From the IMG/VR virus record IMGVR_UViG_3300046660_000306: a stretch of 36,208 nucleotides of DNA; one strand, 5' to 3'. This DNA is from a virus. The notes under the pieces are model-generated. The model ran no database searches, was not told the DNA's origin, and saw nothing but the letters and a program-made list of their open reading frames with translations. Position 1 is the first letter of the stretch; every line of letters begins with the position of its first letter. A program made the position numbers and the translations under genes. Of the stretch, positions 543 through 31,691 are shown one piece after another.

Positions 543-3350
543 TCAGGCCTGAAAAATCCAGCACTTCACGATGGGTTGCTTGGTGACGACAGCGTTAGAG
601 TGCTTGGCCTGGTGGGCACGCACCGCGCTGTCAGTGGCCTTGTTCGTGTCGATCAATTTTCGAGAGCGGGAATCTTTCAGGCGCTCTCTCAATTCGCCGA
701 TATCGGCAACCTTCTGGCGGTGCTCGGCCGCGCACTTAACGAAGTCGTTGAGGTTGATGGCAATGGTGTTGTCTTTCTTGCTGTGATTGACCACCGGGCC
801 GTCAGCGTCCAGACCTTCGAGGTACTCGTACACTTCCCAGAATTCAGCCACCACCGGATGATCCGAGCTGATCGAGGCCTGACGCTCGATGGCCATACGG
901 ATGATTTGAGTGCGGGTGTGGCTGATTTGCGGCTCGCTGAGAGGCAGGACCAGGCGCAAGCAATCGAGCAGGGCGAGCAGCTGGGCGTGGTTCTTGTTGA
1001 TCCGCTCCACACGGATGTAGCCGCGTAGCTTGTTACCGCAGTGGGCACAGTGGTCGTGCTCATTTTTGAATGGCGTTTCGCACGCGAAGCAGTGGCTGTG
1101 AAGGGTGCGCAGTTTTGCTTCGTAACCAGGCACACGACTGGCGAACAGCTCCATCACTTCTGACTCTTTGCGTACTGCTTGCAGCAGGAAGTTGCTGAGC
1201 TTTGCGCCCTCCAAAGAATTGAGCAGGTCCGCTGCTGCGCGGCTTTCAGCAGTCACGGTTGGCCGCATAAAATGCAATTTCACAATCCGGGTCATGATCG
1301 CCTCGGACGCAACAACTGGGGCGTTCTGACTGATCGCAATGGTGGCGCGGAAGGGCGGCTCGTAGGTTTCGTTGCCAGCGGTTTTGACACCCTTGGTCGC
1401 GAGTGTGCCGCCGCCGTAGTAGTCCTTCAGCTCGTCCCATTCGAACGTTTTGGCGTGCGCCTTATCGTCGCCGCTGCGATCCGATTCCAGCAGCACGACG
1501 GGCATGCCAGAGATTTGACCCATCAAGCGGCTACGGCCGGCTTTGGTGGATTTGGATGGGTCGAAGCCTTCGTATCCTTCGCGGCCCAGCAATTTCCACA
1601 GCAAGGTGAGCAGGGTGGTTTTGCCGGCACCGGCTTCGCCTGTTGCTTCCAGGAAGGGAAACGATTGGTACCGGGCGCGAATCTGCTCGGCGAACAGCGA
1701 GCCAAACCAGAAGGTCAGCGCAACGGTGCCCTGGGCGCCAAAGCACTGCCAGAGCAAATTCAACCACTGTGGGTCGTAGTCCTTGGCGTCCTTCTGCAGG
1801 GCGATCTTCACGCCTTTTTGCAGGCTCTTGAGTTTCAGCTTGCCCATCTCGAAGAATTCCTCTTCGTTGATGGTGATGAGCTGGCCTTCCCGGATAGCGA
1901 TGTCGTTGAACACGTAGCAGCCGTACTCCCTGCTGTAGCCGACGTAGTCGATGGTTTGAACGGTTTTGATGCCGAAGAGCTGGTCTTTCATGATCTTGTC
2001 CAACTGTTGTCCACTACCGGTGAACACGGCCCCGGCGCCCATGCCGAGAAGTCTTTTTTTGAATTCGCTGGCCGCTGCGACCTGGCCACCGGTGAAGGTG
2101 TTTTTCACCGAGCCGCCGTCGTGGGGGAAGTCGACGCGGAAGAAGTACCAGGACTCGTCGGTGATCTCGTTGCGCTGGAAATACAGTGCCTTGGGGTAGC
2201 AGTTGGCGATCTCGACCACGCAGCCAGACATGCGCAGCGCCTTGGCGCGGCGTGCTTTGTCGTTGAGTTGTTGGTCTTCTTGGTTATCGCTGGCATCCAG
2301 TGCCTGCATGGCGCTGTTGAACTTCGAGATGTCCAACTTCCACCAGTACAGGCGGGAGTCGAAGCCGAAGTGAAACTCTTCGCGCTCGCGCCACTGGTAC
2401 ATCAGCAAGGCTTTCTCCACGGCGCTTTCCGCGATCAGCAGGGCTCCGTGATGCTTGGCGTCGTCCAGCTCTTTGTCGATCCGCTGGGTGCGGGCTTCGA
2501 CGTCATCCATGAATGCCCACCGCTGGTGCAGATCGTTCCAATCGACCTTGCGCGAATCAGGCTGGGGAATCTGCGCCGCGTCGCAAGTGAAGCCAAGGTC
2601 GCGCGCCTGGCGGACCCACATGCGGGTGTATTTGTGCGCACCTGGTTCGTTGTCCAGTGCCCAGATCAGCTTCGGCGTTTTGCCGCCGCGAGCGGTGATC
2701 AGAGCTTTCAGCGACTCCTCTGGATAGGCGTTCGAGGAAAGCGCGGCGACGGCTGGAATGCCGTTCTGTACCAAGGCAATGGCATCGAAGATGCCCTCGA
2801 CGATCCACAGCTCGTCGACCTGCATAAGATCCACGCAGGGAGGCACCCACCAATAACCCTTGTAGCTTTCGCCAGGTTTGAAACGAGCCTTCTTCTTGCC
2901 GAAGCGATTCGGCTTGTCGATCAGCCGCTCCCAATAGCCACCCTTTTCGAGTGGAAAGCGAACGGTGGCCGAGCCAATGTTAAGCTCGCGATCAAAGTAG
3001 TTTTCCTGGGTGTACCAGCCTTCGATCATCCCCACGTCGAATCCACGGGCGAAGGTCAGATAGGCTTTGGCGCTCGCTGCGGGTTGATCGTCGGTGGCAG
3101 GGGCTCGCTTGCTCCAGTCGTCGAACAGGTCGCTGTACAGCTCCTTGACCGGTTCCATGTAGCGGCATTTCTGCTCGCGGCCGCAGCGGATGAACCATGG
3201 CTCGTCGTAGCGGGAAAACAGCCGCCGCTGGTTGCACTGCGGGCAAGTCCCCTTGCGCATGTATTGGGTGCCGGCCATATGCTGCAGGCCAAAGTCGGAC
3301 TCGAGCCGCTGCAATACGTCAGCGCGCAATTGGTGGTCCATGGTCTTCAC
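543..3350 (-). CDS. Replication primase-helicase: N-terminal zinc finger, Toprim domain, P-loop NTPase, and C-terminal zinc ribbon / DNA-binding region (P4 alpha-like architecture)
   Basis: CPQC...C..KC near the N-terminus. Toprim-like WIVEGIFDAIAL and ALDNEPGA. Walker A GEAGAGKTT. CFAC...CAHC ribbon. 935 aa, the largest early gene. Confidence 0.8.
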   Translation of the reverse strand: MKTMDHQLRADVLQRLESDFGLQHMAGTQYMRKGTCPQCNQRRLFSRYDEPWFIRCGREQKCRYMEPVKELYSDLFDDWSKRAPATDDQPAASAKAYLTFARGFDVGMIEGWYTQENYFDRELNIGSATVRFPLEKGGYWERLIDKPNRFGKKKARFKPGESYKGYWWVPPCVDLMQVDELWIVEGIFDAIALVQNGIPAVAALSSNAYPEESLKALITARGGKTPKLIWALDNEPGAHKYTRMWVRQARDLGFTCDAAQIPQPDSRKVDWNDLHQRWAFMDDVEARTQRIDKELDDAKHHGALLIAESAVEKALLMYQWREREEFHFGFDSRLYWWKLDISKFNSAMQALDASDNQEDQQLNDKARRAKALRMSGCVVEIANCYPKALYFQRNEITDESWYFFRVDFPHDGGSVKNTFTGGQVAAASEFKKRLLGMGAGAVFTGSGQQLDKIMKDQLFGIKTVQTIDYVGYSREYGCYVFNDIAIREGQLITINEEEFFEMGKLKLKSLQKGVKIALQKDAKDYDPQWLNLLWQCFGAQGTVALTFWFGSLFAEQIRARYQSFPFLEATGEAGAGKTTLLTLLWKLLGREGYEGFDPSKSTKAGRSRLMGQISGMPVVLLESDRSGDDKAHAKTFEWDELKDYYGGGTLATKGVKTAGNETYEPPFRATIAISQNAPVVASEAIMTRIVKLHFMRPTVTAESRAAADLLNSLEGAKLSNFLLQAVRKESEVMELFASRVPGYEAKLRTLHSHCFACETPFKNEHDHCAHCGNKLRGYIRVERINKNHAQLLALLDCLRLVLPLSEPQISHTRTQIIRMAIERQASISSDHPVVAEFWEVYEYLEGLDADGPVVNHSKKDNTIAINLNDFVKCAAEHRQKVADIGELRERLKDSRSRKLIDTNKATDSAVRAHQAKHSNAVVTKQPIVKCWIFQA

Positions 3351-3662: not shown

Positions 3663-4037
3663 TTAGTTCGAGGTGTCGCGTGAGGTCAGCAAGCGCGCTG
3701 GTAAGAAGCGCGCCGGTACCGGGTAACGCTTCTGCGTTTGTGTATCCAGCAACCAGACTAGGTACCGGTATGCGCTGCTTGCCGGATAGATGCCCAGCAG
3801 AGCCACACGTTTTGTGGTCATGCTTTCGAATTCGGCAACTGCCAGTTCAGCGATGCGCTGCACCAGGTGCTCGGATACTTCGAGCGATTGGGCGAGGTAG
3901 CGTTTGCAGTTTTCAAGTAGCTGGTGATCGCCGGACAGGTGCTGTCCTTGTTGGCGGTACAGGTAGGCCACGGCCGCTTGCTGCATTGCAGCGCGATAGT
4001 CATTGGTAGGATTGATCGTCAAGGTGATGGCGTTCAT
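3663..4037 (-). CDS. Hypothetical early protein (124 aa)
   Basis: ORF track. Its ATG overlaps the stop of the ogr-like gene (4034-4037), suggesting translational coupling. Confidence 0.6.
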   Translation of the reverse strand: MNAITLTINPTNDYRAAMQQAAVAYLYRQQGQHLSGDHQLLENCKRYLAQSLEVSEHLVQRIAELAVAEFESMTTKRVALLGIYPASSAYRYLVWLLDTQTQKRYPVPARFLPARLLTSRDTSN

Positions 4038-4327
4038 GCGTATTCAACCTCCTTATCGAGTGGTTCCAGCAAATCAAGCTGATCGTCCTGGGACTTCATC
4101 GCCAAGCGCCGCAATGCAACAGGAGCTACGGGTAGCTTGACGGTTGGGTTGGGCATCCCGCTGGGGCTCATTTCATGAGTCATTTCAAACTCGGCTCGCA
4201 CGGACCAGCCGCAAGCCTCGTTTGCGCATTGCAGGTAAGCCACGCGCAGGAAAATGTGAGTGCCTTCGCTGGTGCGAATTCGCATGCGGCCCATGCAGTG
4301 GGGGCAAACCATTTTGTAAACGCTCAT
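4034..4327 (-). CDS. ogr: Ogr/Delta-family zinc-finger late-gene transcriptional activator
   Basis: C8-x2-C11-x22-C34-x4-C39 has the same cysteine spacing as P2 Ogr as I remember it. The motifs are RTS and YLQCxNxxC. 97 aa. Confidence 0.8.
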   Translation of the reverse strand: MSVYKMVCPHCMGRMRIRTSEGTHIFLRVAYLQCANEACGWSVRAEFEMTHEMSPSGMPNPTVKLPVAPVALRRLAMKSQDDQLDLLEPLDKEVEYA

Positions 4328-4797
4328 TGGTCAGCCTCCTTGCTGTGCAGTTGGATCGTGGCCAACACTTCGGAATGCCGCGCACTCAGGTACTTGCTGT
4401 GGGCCGCGAGAATTGCAGCCGCCTCACCTTTCTCGATGACGCCATCGGCCAACGCTTTATCGATGATCTGATCGACTACACCACGCTTGGCTGCTGTGCT
4501 GACCGTACGGCTGTACAACTCGATGTTGTCCAGGGTTTCGGGGGCTGCAATCGGTACGAACATGCCGCTGTATAGGGAGGCCACGTACTCAGGAAAGAAG
4601 CTGGTACCCGCATCTCGCTCGAGCATATGAATCTGGTCATCGCTCAACGGCCGGCTGCCGGCATTTTCGTAGACGTGGTTGTCGAATTTCTTGAGCTCGT
4701 AGCCGAGGCGTGCGGCTGCACATTCGCGACCACCTGGATAAGCGCAAACAACTGCACTGACTACTTGACGTCTGGTTTCTAGCACTAAGCGCTTCAT
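4324..4797 (-). CDS. Phage regulatory CII-like protein (186 CII / CP76-type). An alternative GTG start at 4827 is possible.
   Basis: About 157-167 aa, placed immediately after the cro-like gene as in 186. AAGGAGG lies upstream of the ATG at 4797. The family call is from memory of the general sequence pattern. Confidence 0.5.
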   Translation of the reverse strand: MKRLVLETRRQVVSAVVCAYPGGRECAAARLGYELKKFDNHVYENAGSRPLSDDQIHMLERDAGTSFFPEYVASLYSGMFVPIAAPETLDNIELYSRTVSTAAKRGVVDQIIDKALADGVIEKGEAAAILAAHSKYLSARHSEVLATIQLHSKEADQ

Positions 4798-4826
4798 GTT
4801 CTCGTTTCCCTCCTTGGCTAGCCGCA

Positions 4827-5027
4827 CTACGGTGCAACCTCGCCGTCTTTGATCCCGAGCAAAACCGCTGCCCGGTGTGCCTCGCCTCGACGACCTTTCT
4901 TACGTCCATTGAGTAGATCACTGACCAAATTTTTGTTCAGACCATGTTCGCGGCTGAACTCCGCGATGCTTTTTCCCCGTCGGTCAAGAGCTGCACGGGC
5001 TTGCTCGGGGGTTAGAAGGACATGCAT
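4827..5027 (-). CDS. Small HTH DNA-binding protein, Ner/Nlp-like. By position it is the Cro/Cox/Apl analogue and first gene of the early lytic operon. An alternative TTG start lies at 5036.
   Basis: The segment GKSIAEFSREHGLNKNLVSDLLNGRKKGRRGEAHRAAVLLGI is typical of Ner-type regulators. The gene is divergent from the repressor gene. Confidence 0.6.
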   Translation of the reverse strand: MHVLLTPEQARAALDRRGKSIAEFSREHGLNKNLVSDLLNGRKKGRRGEAHRAAVLLGIKDGEVAP

Positions 5028-5029
5028 AG

Positions 5030-5089
5030 TGTTCAACCGTGTTTAATCGTGTTCGACGGTGAGGATTCTTGGGCAGAAATCTGTTCAAG
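5030..5089. promoter_or_regulatory. Lysis/lysogeny switch. Three direct repeats of TGTTC(A/G)A(C/G) at 5030-5037, 5050-5057 and 5082-5089 are candidate operators. A candidate early promoter on the minus strand has -35 TTGACT (5093-5088) and -10 AAGAAT (5070-5065) with a 17-nt spacer.
   Basis: Read directly in the 84-bp divergent intergenic region. P2 C repressor is known to use direct-repeat half sites. Confidence 0.45.
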
Positions 5090-5111
5090 TCAACTGGTAT
5101 TGATCAAAAAA

Positions 5112-5456
5112 GTGCTCATTTTAAATGGAGTAGGTGAACGCCTACGTGAAGAAAGGGATCGGTTGGGTTTGAATCAGACCGATTTTGGTATCGCTGCTGG
5201 CGTTAGCCGAGGAACTCAGAAGGCGTACGAACTGGAGTCAAGTTCGCCTGATGTGCGCTACTTGGCTGCTTTGCAGGAGATGTCTGTGGATGTTCATTTC
5301 GTCCTCACTGGCAGTCGGCATTCGATTGATGCCGCGAGCCTCAACGAGGAGGAGTCACTGGTTCTCGAACAGTTTCGCTCTCTCCCGGAGCACGACCGCG
5401 CGTCCGTGAAAAGGCTTACTGGTGCACTCGTAGATACTGTGCGAGTGAAGTTGTAA
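5112..5456 (+). CDS. XRE-family HTH immunity repressor (CI/C analogue), about 114 aa from a GTG start
   Basis: GERLREERDRLGLNQTDFGIAAGVSRGTQKAYE is a classic HTH_XRE segment. The ATG at 5022 given by the ORF track would overlap the divergent gene and the operators, so GTG at 5112 is preferred. Confidence 0.75.
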   Translation: MLILNGVGERLREERDRLGLNQTDFGIAAGVSRGTQKAYELESSSPDVRYLAALQEMSVDVHFVLTGSRHSIDAASLNEEESLVLEQFRSLPEHDRASVKRLTGALVDTVRVKL

Positions 5457-5525
5457 TCTGAGGATTCAACATGGCGCAGAACGCGGAATTCAGCCGCGTC
5501 AGTTCGTTCATAAGAAATAAACAGA

Positions 5526-5556
5526 AGCCCGGCCATTCAGCCGGGCTTTTTGTTTT
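5526..5556 (+). terminator. Rho-independent terminator after the repressor gene
   Basis: Stem agcccggc / gccgggct, loop cattca, then ttttTGtttt. Confidence 0.8.
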
Positions 5557-5602
5557 CTCAGCCACGGGAACGTGACTTTGTTGGCAAAATTCTCGCCTCC
5601 GT

Positions 5603-5624
5603 GTACTGTATGCGCATACAGTAC
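5603..5624. promoter_or_regulatory. Perfect 22-bp palindrome containing a LexA (SOS) box: TACTGTATGCGCATACAGTA
   Basis: gtactgtatgcgcatacagtac is its own reverse complement and fits CTGT-N8-ACAG. TTGGCA lies 17 nt upstream (5581-5586). The box is 20 nt upstream of the ATG at 5644. Confidence 0.8.
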
Positions 5625-5643
5625 TTGCGTATGGAGTTTGCGC

Positions 5644-5823
5644 ATGTTGTCGATACGGAAGGTGGAAACCAGTCCCGCCCAAGAACAGTCAAATTCACGT
5701 CGATACATTTCTCGAAAAGAGCGTGTATTGCTTCGATGGTTCCGCCGCTTAGGGAAAGAGGATCGTGCTCATGTCCTGCGTTTTGTGTCGGCAATGGCCA
5801 TAACAAAGCTGCCTCTCAAGTGA
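5644..5823 (+). CDS. 59-aa protein downstream of the LexA box: candidate SOS-induced antirepressor (functional analogue of 186 Tum or the Gifsy antirepressors)
   Basis: GGAG lies 8 nt upstream of the ATG. Sequence: MLSIRKVETSPAQEQSNSRRYISRKERVLLRWFRRLGKEDRAHVLRFVSAMAITKLPLK. The segment KERVLLRWFRRLGKEDRAHVLRFVSAM aligns with the CI C-terminal segment EESLVLEQFRSLPEHDRASVKRLTGAL at about 12/27 identities. Confidence 0.6.
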   Translation: MLSIRKVETSPAQEQSNSRRYISRKERVLLRWFRRLGKEDRAHVLRFVSAMAITKLPLK

Positions 5824-5841
5824 CGTTTCATGGATGAGCGG

Positions 5842-5863
5842 AGGCGCCTTAGGGCGTCTTTTT
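5842..5863 (+). terminator. Rho-independent terminator after the 59-aa gene
   Basis: Stem aggcgcc / ggcgtct (one G-U pair), loop ttag, then ttttt. Confidence 0.65.
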
Positions 5864-7131
5864 CATGCCTGGGCGTTTTGAATTCTCCTCCATTCCCTAT
5901 CTGTCGCCCGTTTCGCCGTCTTCTCACTTGCGTACAACCACTGCAACCGCTTGGGCTTTGTCTGATCGCCCGCCGTCACGGACTTTTCCTGTCCACTCTT
6001 ATCTTCTCGGTAGTAGGCGATGATGCCGGTGTAATCTCCTTTAGTTTCCTCGGCCAAGTCCTCGACCGTGTCCTCCGGCAACTTGCTCTCCAAATCTAGG
6101 CTCATCGTGTAGCCGTTGTCCGCGGTGAGGCTGTGCTGCACGTTGCCTCCGTACCAGATGATTTCCTCAATCTCGGCCTTCACGCCCTGGAGCGTGTAGG
6201 TCAGTTCCGGAATCAGGTCCGGTCGACCTCGAGCAAGGGTGTAGCTAAGGGTGGCGCTGCCGCGTTGGAGGCGATTGAACTCGGCTCGAGCAGCACGAAG
6301 GGCGGACTGCTGATCGCTGTAGGTATGGCGCAGGTCCTTGAGGTTCTCGCCGCCACCGGCAATTGCTTCCTGCTTCTTGGCACTGTTCACGTCGTAGTAA
6401 TAGGCGCGCACACCGTCGTAGCTGTCGCGATCGGCTTGCAGGAAGCGGTGCTGATCGCCATCAACGCGTGTAAGGGTGATGTGAGGCAGTGCCATGCCAC
6501 TGGCCGTCTTGCCACCGCCGGCCGGCATGCACAACAGGCATCCCGCTTTGACGGTTGCCACCGCATCGAACTCTTCCCCCAGTCGACTGATCAGGTTGGC
6601 ATCCGACTCATTGGCCTGGTCGAGCTGCAGGATGGGCAGGTTGCCCAAGGCTTCGGCAATCGTTGCCGTCAGTCCGTTGCTGCTCGCAATAGCGCCCAGT
6701 ACGTTGGCCAGGGTGGTGTTGCTCCAACTGCGTTCGCGCTTTGTCTTGAGCCCTTTGCGCAGGTCCGCCGATCGTGCGCGAATGCTGAGCACGTCAGGTG
6801 CACCGCTGTGTTCGGTTTCGTCGACGGTGTAGGTGCCTTTGTCGACCAGGCCGGTATCACTCCAGCCCAACCACAACCGCAGAACAGCGCCCTTGGGTGG
6901 AATGACCAGCAGGCCGTCGTGGTCGGAGAGTGTGATGCTGAGCTGGTCGGCCTCAATGCCTCGATTGTCGGTCAGCTCCAGGCTCATCAGCCGGGGACTG
7001 ATCAACTGCGCGATGTCATTGCCGTCGACGGTCAGGCGGAACGCCGGTACCGGATAGGCGGCATCACGGCGAATCTGTTCCAGGGCGTTGGTCACGTAGC
7101 CCGTCACTCGGGAAATCGCGGCATCGATCAC
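5863..7131 (-). CDS. D: Tail protein D (P2 gpD, late control D family)
   Basis: PAFRLTVDGNDI...LMSLELTDNRG.EADQLSITLSDHDG and synteny after U. The GTG start overlaps the gpU stop (GTGA). The longer N-terminus shown in the ORF track is rejected. Confidence 0.85.
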   Translation of the reverse strand: MIDAAISRVTGYVTNALEQIRRDAAYPVPAFRLTVDGNDIAQLISPRLMSLELTDNRGIEADQLSITLSDHDGLLVIPPKGAVLRLWLGWSDTGLVDKGTYTVDETEHSGAPDVLSIRARSADLRKGLKTKRERSWSNTTLANVLGAIASSNGLTATIAEALGNLPILQLDQANESDANLISRLGEEFDAVATVKAGCLLCMPAGGGKTASGMALPHITLTRVDGDQHRFLQADRDSYDGVRAYYYDVNSAKKQEAIAGGGENLKDLRHTYSDQQSALRAARAEFNRLQRGSATLSYTLARGRPDLIPELTYTLQGVKAEIEEIIWYGGNVQHSLTADNGYTMSLDLESKLPEDTVEDLAEETKGDYTGIIAYYREDKSGQEKSVTAGDQTKPKRLQWLYASEKTAKRATDREWRRIQNAQA

Positions 7132-7568
7132 AGCAGCCCCCTCAGAATGTTCACCCCGGCGCCGGTGCTTGCGCCGATCAGATCTACACGACCATCGTCG
7201 ACGCGCTTCAGGCTCAGGTTGAATTCGATTCGTCGCGCGGCACCGTTGGGAAAAAAGATCGTCCTGGTCTCTGTCAGGTTGTCGATCACCCAGAGTCCGC
7301 ACAACCGGCCAGTGCCTTCGACCATCGGCCAGGCCTTGCCGGTGTCAGCCATCTGGCGCAACGCATCCAAGCTCAAAACGGTACCGGCCAACTCCGGAAA
7401 GATGATGCCGGGGAGGGTGACGGCATCTTCCCCCCTGCCCAGAAACTGACGGGCAGGGTTGGTGCCGATACGACTGCTGCCAGGGTGACGCCATTCCGTC
7501 TGGCGCTGCATCTCCTGATAGGCAGCCGTGTGCAGGCTAAAAACGAACATGCCGAGGGCGAGCATCAT
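7128..7568 (-). CDS. U: Tail protein U (P2 gpU)
   Basis: MMLALGMFVFSL...TEWRHP...GEDAVTLPG pattern, size and synteny. Confidence 0.85.
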   Translation of the reverse strand: MMLALGMFVFSLHTAAYQEMQRQTEWRHPGSSRIGTNPARQFLGRGEDAVTLPGIIFPELAGTVLSLDALRQMADTGKAWPMVEGTGRLCGLWVIDNLTETRTIFFPNGAARRIEFNLSLKRVDDGRVDLIGASTGAGVNILRGLL

Positions 7569-28938: not shown

Positions 28939-29013
28939 CGCTGGAAGCCTTAAAAATAGTGGAGCGGGTGAATGGAATTGAACCCTCGTATCAGCTTGGA
29001 AAGCTTGTGTCGG
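28939..29013 (-). other. att-like site A: a diverged 3' fragment of a tRNA-Gly (UCC-type anticodon loop, degenerate T-stem) plus about 20 nt of shared flank
   Basis: Minus strand: ...caagctTTCCAAgctgatacgagggttcaattccattcacccgctcca. About 67/75 identical to 30258-30332. Confidence 0.7.
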
Positions 29014-29025
29014 TAGTGCTCGAAT

Positions 29026-29472
29026 TTACAAAAGACGAGGTTGGTGGAAATTGGTAGGGCCTTGGTACGCCGGTGCAGGAGTAGCAGGCACGGCCATCCC
29101 ATTGATCCGGATTAACATAGGGGTCAGCGCTCTGTTCTGAAAAACAGTGTGATTTTTACCCCAGTGGACGCTGATAACCCTCGGCTGGATTGATGTTCCA
29201 GCTTTAGGGAGGCCGTTTGGAACAACAGTTGTCGTACCGCTCGCCGTATATACCAATACCCAGTCGCCAACATTCACAAAGCCATGCCCAAACCACAGCA
29301 TGTGATCTCGTATTGGAGAAGTGGTGCCATCCACCGATGGCAATCCGAGAAAGAGGCAATACTCCCCTAGATCACAGGGCGCCTTAACATAGATTGCTAT
29401 GCGTTCGAGGTTAGGCACCCCATGATCAAACACATCCACGATCTGTAGATTTTCTATGGTGCCAATGCCCAT
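29026..29472 (-). CDS. Cassette gene 2: 148-aa soluble, apparently beta-rich protein of unknown function
   Basis: The ATG overlaps the upstream stop (TAATG). AT-rich. The pattern LQIVDV...ERIAIYV...GEYCLFLG...WFGHGF.NVGDWVLVYT is faintly reminiscent of lamin-tail/immunoglobulin-like sandwich domains, but this is a weak impression only. Confidence 0.7.
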   Translation of the reverse strand: MGIGTIENLQIVDVFDHGVPNLERIAIYVKAPCDLGEYCLFLGLPSVDGTTSPIRDHMLWFGHGFVNVGDWVLVYTASGTTTVVPNGLPKAGTSIQPRVISVHWGKNHTVFQNRALTPMLIRINGMAVPATPAPAYQGPTNFHQPRLL

Positions 29473-30332: not shown

Positions 30333-30452
30333 ATGGTGTTTCAGATTGGCACCGGATGTATGCTTGTGTCCTGAAAAGCCCGCTACGACAGGGCTTTCAG
30401 GACAAGCAGCAATTTCAATGTGTTTCATCGGTTCACCCCATATTTCAGACAT

Positions 30453-30474
30453 ACAGCCCCCGGTAACAGCCCCC
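30453..30474. repeat. Direct repeat ACAGCCCCC x2 (30453-30461, 30466-30474): candidate arm-type sites (P arm)
   Basis: Shares GCCCCC with the 30209-30232 repeats and lies on the other side of the core, just before the int ATG. Confidence 0.55.
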
Positions 30475-30476
30475 AA

Positions 30477-31691
30477 ATGCTCACAGAGAAACAGATCAAG
30501 GCAATGAAGCCAGCGGAAAAGGAGTACACGGTCTCGGATGGGCGTACAGCCCGAGGTGAGGGCGTGCTGCTTCTGCGAGTGCGTCCGAACGGGACGAAGG
30601 AGTTCTACTTCCAGCGCTACAGCAGCGGCAAGAAGATCAAGAACAAGCTCGGCACCTGGCCAACGCTCGGTTTAGCTGACGCTCGGGACCTGTGCCGTGC
30701 TGAAAAGGAAGTGGTGGTTGCAGCCGGCACTTTTCAGGAAGTGATGGATGGCTACATCACCAAACTGTCGGGGGAGGGCGCAGCTTCCGTTGAGGATGTG
30801 AAGTGGTCTTTCAAGCACTACGTTTCCGAACCCTTCCCAAACCTGGTAAAGCTTCCGGCGGTTCTGATTGGACCAGGTGAAATACGGGACATCATTGCCA
30901 AGATGATCGCGAATGGTGTGACCACATACTGCAATCGACTGCGATCGCAGCTACACGCGGCTTTCCAGGTTGCCCTAGAGCAGGAGTTCAACCCTCGCAG
31001 TTATCAGAAAGACAATGTGAAGTTTGGGATCAAAAGCAACCCAGTGGCCAGCGTGCCCGTTCAAGCCGACTGGGAACAGCCAGGCGATCGGGCCTTGTCT
31101 GCAGCAGAACTTGCGCACCTCTGGCAAATGTTGCCGGAGCAATTGAGCGTGGTCACGTCAGAGCTGATCAAATTCTTGATCGCGTCAGGTGGGCAACGCC
31201 CGGAACAGCTGCTCGCAACCGAACGCCGGCACTACCTGAAAGATCACCTTATTATTCGCAACAAGAAGGGGCGAGGGGCTGAAGGAGAGCGCTCGTTGCA
31301 CGTCGTACCCTACAACAAATTGATGCGCCAGAGCCTTAAGACCATGGACGAAATCAATGCGATGAGCCTTTACCCTTTCGAGGGAAAAGTGCCGGATAGT
31401 TCGCTGCACGCAAACTCACTCTCCCGTGCAGTGACCAAGCTGTGCAGCCGACATCCAGACAAATTCAATGGCCCCTTTACCATGCGTGATTTGCGACGGA
31501 CCTGCAAAACGTTGATGGGCGCCGCAGGGCTGAACAAAGAGCTTAGAGATCGCATTCAGGGGCATGCGTTTAATGATGTATCTTCAAAGCATTATGATCG
31601 GTATGACTATTTTAAAGAAAAAAAGCACGGTCTGGATCGTTGGGCTATGTGGTTGCAGAAGAATGCTCTAGTAGCTAGTGTGAATATTTAA
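30477..31691 (+). CDS. int: Tyrosine integrase, P4/CP4-57 type (tRNA-targeting)
   Basis: N-terminus LTEKQIKAMKPAEKEYTVSDG...GLLLRVRPNGTKEFYFQRY (arm-binding domain). C-terminus MRDLRRTCKT...IQGHA...HYDRYDY (catalytic R...H-x-x-R...Y). Confidence 0.9.
   Translation: MLTEKQIKAMKPAEKEYTVSDGRTARGEGVLLLRVRPNGTKEFYFQRYSSGKKIKNKLGTWPTLGLADARDLCRAEKEVVVAAGTFQEVMDGYITKLSGEGAASVEDVKWSFKHYVSEPFPNLVKLPAVLIGPGEIRDIIAKMIANGVTTYCNRLRSQLHAAFQVALEQEFNPRSYQKDNVKFGIKSNPVASVPVQADWEQPGDRALSAAELAHLWQMLPEQLSVVTSELIKFLIASGGQRPEQLLATERRHYLKDHLIIRNKKGRGAEGERSLHVVPYNKLMRQSLKTMDEINAMSLYPFEGKVPDSSLHANSLSRAVTKLCSRHPDKFNGPFTMRDLRRTCKTLMGAAGLNKELRDRIQGHAFNDVSSKHYDRYDYFKEKKHGLDRWAMWLQKNALVASVNI

Follow-up and report, generated by a model that had tools for sequence, protein, structure and literature searches.

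A small gene behind a conserved LexA-type box, related to the C-terminal hairpin of the immunity repressor, as a candidate decoy antirepressor in phiCTX/P2-like Pseudomonas prophages

The stretch of DNA analyzed here (the window) is the 36,208-nucleotide viral record IMGVR_UViG_3300046660_000306 from IMG/VR, a phiCTX/P2-like Pseudomonas prophage. This work concerns a small open reading frame (ORF) of 59 codons in its immunity region (5644-5823, plus strand), a candidate gene for an SOS-induced antirepressor. An earlier note, made from the sequence alone, had proposed that this ORF is driven by a LexA box and that its product resembles the C-terminal end of the repressor. The small ORF sits between the terminated gene of a 114-residue XRE-type immunity repressor (5112-5456, plus strand) and the tail gene D. 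As the note had it, the repressor gene is terminated; upstream of the small ORF, its transcript is closed by a strong intrinsic terminator (5523-5550, plus strand; 11-bp stem with 7 GC pairs and a T-run), the hairpin of which is kept in 8 loci. It is followed by a putative sigma-70 promoter (5581-5609, plus strand), with the −35 hexamer TTGGCA at 5581-5586, a spacing of 17 nt and the −10 hexamer TACTGT at 5604-5609. A LexA (SOS) box at 5603-5624, a perfect palindrome of 11+11 nt (GTACTGTATGCGCATACAGTAC) without strand, lies over the −10 hexamer and the point where transcription is expected to begin. A short, near-invariant 5' untranslated region (5'UTR; 5625-5643, plus strand) then leads to the small ORF, whose Shine-Dalgarno sequence GGAG (5633-5636), ATG (5644) and stop codon (5821-5823) are as previously described. 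Behind the ORF, a hairpin with a T-run at about 5842-5864 is a putative bidirectional terminator, with no strand of its own, shared by the small ORF and the convergent gene D. The ORF had been credited with its own terminator, and this element, read from the sequence and unlisted by the terminator scan, agrees with that; stronger equivalents follow the small ORF in four of the related loci (L002, L030-L032).

The palindrome at 5603-5624 had been taken for an SOS box, and this was confirmed. The short core CTGT-N8-ACAG (5606-5621) is not significant by itself: the window has two copies where 0.56 would be expected, and two were also reached in 9 of 100 shuffles. The second copy, at 29132, has no flanking consensus. 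The extended consensus of the gammaproteobacterial SOS regulon, TACTGTAT-N4-ATACAGTA, has one match without mismatch in the window (5604-5623), and none in 100 dinucleotide-preserving shuffles even when two mismatches are allowed. With the box placed over the −10 hexamer and the expected start site, the arrangement looks like the classical geometry of repression, and LexA is predicted from the sequence to bind at 5603-5624.

The intergenic region of the window was aligned with that of seven further loci, namely five contigs carrying homologues of the small protein (L001, L002, L030-L032) and two species genomes encoding the repressor (L003, L004). It can be seen that, from 5' to 3', the conserved terminator hairpin is followed by about 25 variable bases, an invariant GTTGGCAA, a variable spacer of 15 nt and then an invariant TACTGTATG..CATACAGT. 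The 5'UTR TTGCGYAWGGAGTTBGCGY and the first three codons ATGTTGTCG are likewise invariant (5616-5652 in the window). Beyond these three codons, the sequence of the small gene diverges to about 35% identity. The spacing between TTGGCA and TACTGT is 17 nt in all eight loci. Because the −10 hexamer agrees with the consensus at only 3 of 6 positions, we infer the promoter from the invariant TTGGCA, the fixed spacing and the conservation, and not from a consensus scan. In the leader of the small gene only a weak hairpin is predicted (−6 kcal/mol), with no compensatory pairs; the invariant 5'UTR together with the first codons may be a second control site. A scan of IMG/VR for the pattern of box plus 5'UTR returned 21 more viral contigs with the same GTTGGCAA and the same spacing. 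The small protein is intact in 19 of them, cut by the contig end in one and frameshifted in one, and every contig that reaches far enough upstream encodes a repressor with the same tail.

The small ORF is a real gene under purifying selection. Between loci, the ratio of nonsynonymous to synonymous substitution rates (dN/dS) is 0.06-0.27 in the part coding for a predicted two-helix hairpin, and the first 22 codons are freer (0.2-1.2). In the product, the N-terminal 23 residues are disordered and are followed by helices at residues 24-35 and 38-53 (nucleotides 5713-5802), a hairpin modeled by AlphaFold2 with a predicted local distance difference test (pLDDT) score of about 90. The protein matches phrog_23693, a profile of 59 positions and of unknown function, with its residues 1-54 on positions 1-54 (expectation value, E, 7.9e-6). 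Word-based searches and exhaustive searches with hidden Markov models (HMMs) both gave a family almost entirely of 46-63 residues, the exhaustive search returning mostly proteins of 46-61. Neither the small protein nor its family had a hit in Pfam or NCBIfam at E up to 1 or a sequence match in the PDB, and Foldseek with the small-protein model returned noise only (E above 4). Against 50,697 phage records, tblastn with the small protein found no match even at E 10, so that no cultured phage in this collection appears to carry it, or the query was too short. Two other frames were tried and rejected. An alternative frame of 68 codons (5631-5837) is not conserved and is interrupted in L002, and a 34-codon ORF behind the repressor gene (5471-5575) has a GAGGA site but its ATG is missing from L001. 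For 4800-6000, Rfam gave only sub-threshold hits, on the terminator hairpin, and therefore no known small RNA is assigned there.

The open frame of the repressor begins at ATG 5022, but the start of the gene was placed at GTG 5112, since 35 homologues begin with MLI..G.GERLRE. Its 114 residues comprise a five-helix helix-turn-helix (HTH) domain of the XRE type (residues 7-66) joined by a linker to a two-helix hairpin at the C-terminus (5346-5450, plus strand; helices 79-90 and 93-113 by DSSP on the model). The AlphaFold2 model has a mean pLDDT of 88.6, with a low-confidence linker, and its N-terminal domain resembles those of the P22 C2 and 434 repressors. The statement that the repressor has no S24 peptidase domain held: Pfam found HTH_31/HTH_3 only, and the model consists of the HTH and two helices with no beta-rich C-terminal domain. 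The S24 domain, Ala-Gly site and Ser/Lys dyad of the self-cleaving lambda CI/LexA class were not found in the 114-residue protein. A repressor built of HTH domains only, with no S24 domain, needs another route of inactivation. By analogy, the C-terminal hairpin is presumed to be both its oligomerization module and the target of the small protein.

The core of the small protein had been likened to the C-terminal end of the repressor at about 12 of 27 identities; 11 of 27 were counted here, and BLASTP between the two proteins did not support the likeness (E = 18, not significant). Pairwise BLASTP is useless at this length, so profiles were needed, and profile methods bore the likeness out. Profile-profile alignment (hhalign) of the close small-protein family with the 35 repressor homologues gave a probability of 94.5% (E 8e-8), and a more diverse small-protein alignment gave 97.4% (E 1e-11) over 44 columns, in which small-protein residues 16-59 correspond to repressor residues 71-114. 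The real scores were 62-65, as compared with 13.6 for the best of 100 column-shuffled tails and 12.2 for the reversed tail. When six-frame translations were searched with the small-protein HMM, the repressor C-terminus was matched in all 21 Pseudomonas-group genome loci (E 6e-9 to 2e-4). The repressor tail also matches positions 22-52 of phrog_23693 weakly (E 0.11), and in both AlphaFold models the hairpin is formed by a helix of 12 residues, a turn of two and a second, long helix. Taken together, the profiles and the models indicate that the small protein is a paralogue, an ancient copy, of the C-terminal two-helix hairpin of the repressor.

The hairpin occurs in other settings as well. P0138, a protein of 222 residues from the exhaustive search, is an XRE HTH protein in which the hairpin motif (e.g. 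EEILLRTYRELSEKDKAHTRQTMNMALKA) occurs three times in tandem, and this shows the two-helix hairpin to be a mobile, repeatable module of XRE regulators. Two otherwise syntenic prophages, L033 (4494-4892) and L034 (3288-3698), differ by a recombination breakpoint in the repressor linker: identity between the two repressors is 43% in the HTH domain and 94% in the hairpin, and the small proteins do not differ at all. Since the breakpoint falls in the linker, the part that sets immunity specificity is exchanged independently of the presumed induction module.

Several positions in the alignments bear on whether the two hairpins could pair. At hairpin column 31, the small proteins have R or K in 19 of 26 loci and the repressors have E in 20 of 26. 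Should the residues at this column lie opposite each other in a dimer, the repressor would pair more readily with the small protein than with itself. In addition, the conserved hydrophobic positions of either hairpin are too many to be buried in an isolated pair of helices, which argues, from the alignments, for an intermolecular interface.

The position of the small gene is constant: in all contexts examined it is found between repressor and gene D, on the strand of the repressor, even when the small proteins are only 33-46% identical, and 1-4 cargo genes sometimes stand between repressor and gene D. Among 21 Pseudomonas-group species genomes with the repressor family, 18 have the small paralogue downstream of the repressor, and a LexA box is present in only two of these 18 (L003, L004). 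Nine others of the 18, without the LexA box (L005, L006, L008, L009, L013-L016, L022), share another upstream box, TGGTGGCACG-N5-ACATGCTGAGAATCG. Downstream of it come two hairpins, the first with two compensatory pairs and the second pairing with the start codon (e.g. L014:3400-3563, from Pseudomonas lactis DSM 29167). Rfam had no match for this control region, and a sigma-54 promoter at the TGGCAC box of these relatives was rejected on spacing (13 nt between GG and GC, not 10). The remaining loci without the LexA box have yet other upstream sequences. From this distribution of control regions, the conserved element is the pairing of repressor tail and small paralogue, with the LexA box as one of several inputs.

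The surroundings are those of a phiCTX/P2-like prophage. In the cII-like region, DNA matches of about 70% were obtained with phiCTX, Dobby and related phages, and the closest species-genome locus is L003 (Pseudomonas baetica SMK4), which has a near-identical module and a repressor that is 92% identical. On the minus strand lie a primase/Toprim gene (543-3350), an Ogr-like gene (4034-4327), a CII-like gene (listed ORF 4324-4827; the 157-residue product that was scanned begins at an internal ATG near 4797) and a Cro/Apl-like HTH gene of 69 codons (4827-5036; phrog_925, E 1.7e-27; Pfam HTH_35/HTH_31), which is syntenic with CII-like, Ogr_Delta and Toprim genes in related loci. Between the divergent cro and repressor genes, a repeat search found three direct repeats GTGTTyrAyy with 10-bp spacing (5026-5061, no strand), also present in L001 and L002. 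These repeats are candidate operators on one helix face, and the arrangement recalls the direct-repeat operators of P2 C. Gene D, of the P2 gpD tail family, occupies 5863-7302 on the minus strand as a maximal ORF (homologues have 411-425 residues) at the end of the late region; it is convergent with the small ORF, and Phage_GPD of Pfam was found on the syntenic genes in L001 and L030-L035. No integrase gene lies between gene D and the repressor in the window, unlike the gene order of P2, in which the integrase gene lies there.

A few features elsewhere in the window were recorded. A fragment resembling a tRNA 3' end (tggagcgggtgaatggaattgaaccc; 28957-28985, minus strand), for which ARAGORN found no complete tRNA, is probably what is left of an attachment site at the border of a prophage or island, and an integrase gene with an Arm-DNA-bind_3 domain (30420-31691) lies 1.4 kb beyond it. 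A 17-nt inverted repeat (94% complementary; arms 4949-4965 and 5482-5498, 516 nt apart) has one arm inside the cro-like gene and the other just 3' of the repressor stop codon, and is probably fortuitous because the second arm is missing from L001.

Several known systems resemble this one in part. The closest in architecture is SinR/SinI of Bacillus subtilis (PDB 1b0n). Like the window repressor, SinR (about 110 residues) has an XRE five-helix HTH and two C-terminal helices, and SinI, of about 57-59 residues, is a paralogue of those two helices, as the small protein is of the hairpin. Foldseek aligned the repressor model with SinR (1b0n_A) over 106 columns, with a weak score (E 5e-3). The relation is one of analogy and not of family membership: Pfam, a set that includes SinI, was searched up to E 1 with both the small protein and the repressor tail and returned no such hit, and with an E limit of 10 the small-protein profile matched neither SinI nor SinR among the PDB chains. 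SinI/SinR also differs in its setting, as a cellular biofilm switch governed by Spo0A, in contrast to a LexA-controlled switch of a prophage. SinI is reported to mimic the oligomerization domain of SinR and thereby to prevent its tetramerization (summarised in 10.1101/2025.11.23.689978).

The closest phage precedent is AimC/AimX of the arbitrium Bacillus phages, in which an XRE repressor and a very small antirepressor form a heterodimer. AimX binds the oligomerization domain of the XRE repressor AimC and blocks DNA binding, and is LexA-controlled in phi106; its authors liken it to SinI mimicking the SinR oligomerization domain (10.1101/2025.11.23.689978). AimX differs in its size (29 residues or more), in overlapping aimC, in being also under AimR and peptide signalling, and in its Gram-positive host. 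It is not reported to be a paralogue of an AimC domain, whereas the small protein of the window is a clear paralogue of its presumed target, and the C-terminal domain of AimC contains a beta-hairpin and is described as a new fold, unlike the two-helix hairpin here.

Antirepressor genes under LexA have been described in other phages with non-cleavable repressors. Phage 186 has its tum gene at the distal end of the early region, and its CI repressor is larger and of another architecture. As the earlier note had stated for 186 and the Gifsy prophages, LexA-controlled antirepressors are established: Tum of 186, AntC of N15, and GfoA and GftA of Gifsy, all acting where the repressors are short and non-cleavable (PMC3121763). 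Phage 186 (as also PSP3 and Fels-2) is similar to the window in being P2-like, with a non-cleavable repressor and a LexA-repressed antirepressor gene; Tum has 146 residues with a DinI-like second half (PMC3121763), as compared with 59 residues here, the shortness that had been pointed out before. For a relation to Tum or DinI, the small protein gave no Pfam or NCBIfam hit at E up to 1 and only PHROGs of unknown function, a search that included no direct alignment with Tum. The pairs GfoR/GfoA and GtgR/GftA of Gifsy and AntC of N15 likewise combine a short repressor that has no self-cleavage motif with a LexA-controlled antirepressor, and these antirepressors bind their repressors (PMC3121763). 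They differ in belonging to lambdoid or N15-type phages, in being unrelated in sequence to their repressors and in having genes far from the immunity region, and some act in trans on other prophages.

Two further comparisons concern the repressor and the wiring of the small gene. Residues 7-107 of the window repressor match RstR of CTXphi (NF041951, about 110 residues) at E 5.6e-8; with 33 bits against a curated cut-off of 80 it is a distant relative only. The CTXphi antirepressor RstC is not known to be a paralogue of RstR or to be LexA-controlled. In Vibrio phages, modules of a transcription factor and a small ORF, and Qtip, supply proteins of about 80 residues or less that inactivate a cI-type repressor; there too, as in the LexA and non-LexA versions found here, different phages wire the small gene to different inputs (PMC10432266). 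These modules differ in being independent of SOS and having their own transcription factor, and their small proteins are not described as copies of repressor domains (PMC10432266). In the full-text literature searched, no description of the Pseudomonas small-protein family was found, which is not proof that none exists.

The premises of the earlier note that could be examined in silico have thus held, namely a LexA box on the conserved promoter of a small gene under selection, located in the immunity region, and homology of its product to the repressor tail. We consider it probable, with moderate confidence, that the 59-codon gene encodes an SOS-controlled, SinI-like decoy antirepressor that mimics the oligomerization module of the repressor. 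In a lysogen, host LexA on the 22-bp box would cover the −10 hexamer and the start site and keep the small gene silent, and the repressor would self-associate through its C-terminal hairpin and occupy the 10-bp-spaced repeats between its own gene and cro. Upon DNA damage, RecA-stimulated cleavage of LexA would free the small-gene promoter. The hairpin of the small protein would then pair with that of the repressor in place of a second repressor subunit; such a heteromer would have a single DNA-binding domain, so that the operators would no longer be bound cooperatively and transcription of the early lytic operon (cro, cII-like, ogr, primase) would be switched on. In the IMG/VR contig L042 (6640-6830) the LexA box is kept and the small ORF is frameshifted, either by an assembly error or as a natural loss-of-function variant. 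If the decoy model is true, this variant should not be SOS-inducible.

A number of observations weigh against this proposal. The −10 hexamer is weak, and pairwise BLASTP did not detect the similarity that the profiles did. The oligomerization role of the repressor hairpin is drawn by analogy with SinR and AimC only, and contact between small protein and repressor, like the formation of heteromers and the induction of the prophage, is a predicted step of the model. Since most members of the family have no LexA box, SOS control is not a property of the family. In L004 (Metapseudomonas otitidis, 4613-5272), the stop codon of the small ORF overlaps the start of umuD (TAATG) in a LexA-controlled operon of small ORF and umuDC within the immunity region of the prophage, a translational coupling under which the small ORF might serve SOS cargo. 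Burkholderia phi52237 gp23 (L036:2950-3408) and its counterpart in Ralstonia RS-AB1 (L037:2950-3408) carry the hairpin motif LSADEEVLLAGYRSLDAKGRAGVLGMIGGM inside longer repressors, and neither a small paralogue nor a LexA box occurs within 3 kb of them; in the early operon of phi52237, an antirepressor of the Ant type is annotated instead. Covariation between the partners was flat as well: across 26 loci, cognate pairs of small protein and repressor hairpin were 32.3% identical and non-cognate pairs 30.9%, and in per-column permutation tests no column survived correction for 38 tests. Correlating the distances gave little, with a rho of 0.23 for the hairpin and of −0.16 for the HTH domain. 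As the loci are related and few, the flat covariation is weak evidence against the proposal only.

A wider form of the decoy proposal is offered tentatively. Repressor-tail decoys may be a common output device of the lysis-lysogeny decision in phiCTX/P2-like Pseudomonas prophages, with the signal chosen by swapping the control region. It is conceivable in the same way that one lineage uses the LexA box and SOS, and that the larger lineage uses TGGTGGCACG-N5-ACATGCTGAGAATCG with its structured leader for another, possibly non-SOS signal. If this is true, the device would be the equivalent, among Gram-negative bacteria, of SinI/SinR and eukaryotic microProteins, and would give a direct handle on SOS-independent induction in Pseudomonas.

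The SOS-induced, repressor-tail-derived protein might, firstly, act on another partner, either the Cro-like or CII-like regulator or host UmuD, RecA or LexA, and so modulate the DNA-damage response or the lytic programme without titrating the repressor. The overlap with umuD in L004 and the flat covariation are in its favour, and the interface may differ, as the small proteins have W or F at column 32 and F at column 47 where the repressors have polar residues or L/M. However, umuDC stands behind the ORF in one of more than 30 loci, and elsewhere a terminator precedes gene D; the small gene stays with the repressor hairpin when the HTH domain is swapped, and it has no similarity to DinI or to any other Pfam or NCBIfam family. 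Action on another partner is therefore judged unlikely, though it is the alternative that survives best.

The LexA promoter might, secondly, be mainly a slot for SOS cargo (morons), the small ORF being a leader or coupling ORF, or the remnant of a partial duplication, with no effect on lysogeny. Morons are frequent between repressor and gene D (L002, L004, L030-L033), and in L020 (Stutzerimonas zhaodongensis, 5450-5925) the same LexA box drives a umuD-like gene alone, with no small ORF. We read the arrangements of umuD in L004 and L020 as capture of a convenient SOS promoter by cargo, with a role in the SOS response itself possible. Against a mere slot stand the strong purifying selection on the hairpin, the retention of the protein across 18 species genomes under two unrelated control regions, and the fact that in most loci nothing but a terminator follows the small ORF; this explanation seems improbable. 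About as improbable, or slightly more so, is a small protein that supports repression by capping or stabilizing repressor oligomers or by raising immunity under stress. Such a role would fit a small protein that has the module in common with the repressor and is encoded on the same strand, downstream of the repressor gene. It is opposed by the strong terminator and the separate LexA-repressed promoter, which uncouple the small gene from the repressor, by the hairpin lacking a DNA-binding domain, the classical dominant-negative design (SinI, AimX), and by the non-cleavable repressor, which would be left with no route of SOS induction. Finally, that palindrome and ORF are chance features with no function, a notion to which only the lack of enrichment of the short core in the window lends any colour, is already refuted by conservation, since the extended box never arose in shuffles, box, promoter and ORF are kept in seven further loci, 21 viral contigs have the pattern of box and 5'UTR, and the ORF is under purifying selection.

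The decoy antirepressor proposed here extends known principles, LexA-controlled antirepressors and SinI-type mimicry, and adds no new one; the decoy idea has its precedents in SinI/SinR and in the LexA-controlled AimX/AimC (10.1101/2025.11.23.689978). The interest of the system lies in the clean origin of the antirepressor, in the breadth of the family among Pseudomonas prophages and in a second control region that hints at a non-SOS signal. Many prophage repressors are short XRE proteins that do not cleave themselves, and the route from DNA damage to their induction is mostly unknown. The sequence evidence points to a compact solution, in which the association module of the repressor, minus its DNA-binding domain, is placed under LexA. 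If this is true, it would explain SOS induction in widespread P2-like prophages of Pseudomonas (18 species genomes and 21 viral contigs surveyed), extend the principle of SinI/SinR and AimX/AimC to Gram-negative phages and show how duplication of part of a repressor gene can give rise to an antirepressor. It would also provide a 59-residue tool with which such prophages could be induced or cured on demand, and the homologues that have no LexA box would point to an undiscovered induction signal.

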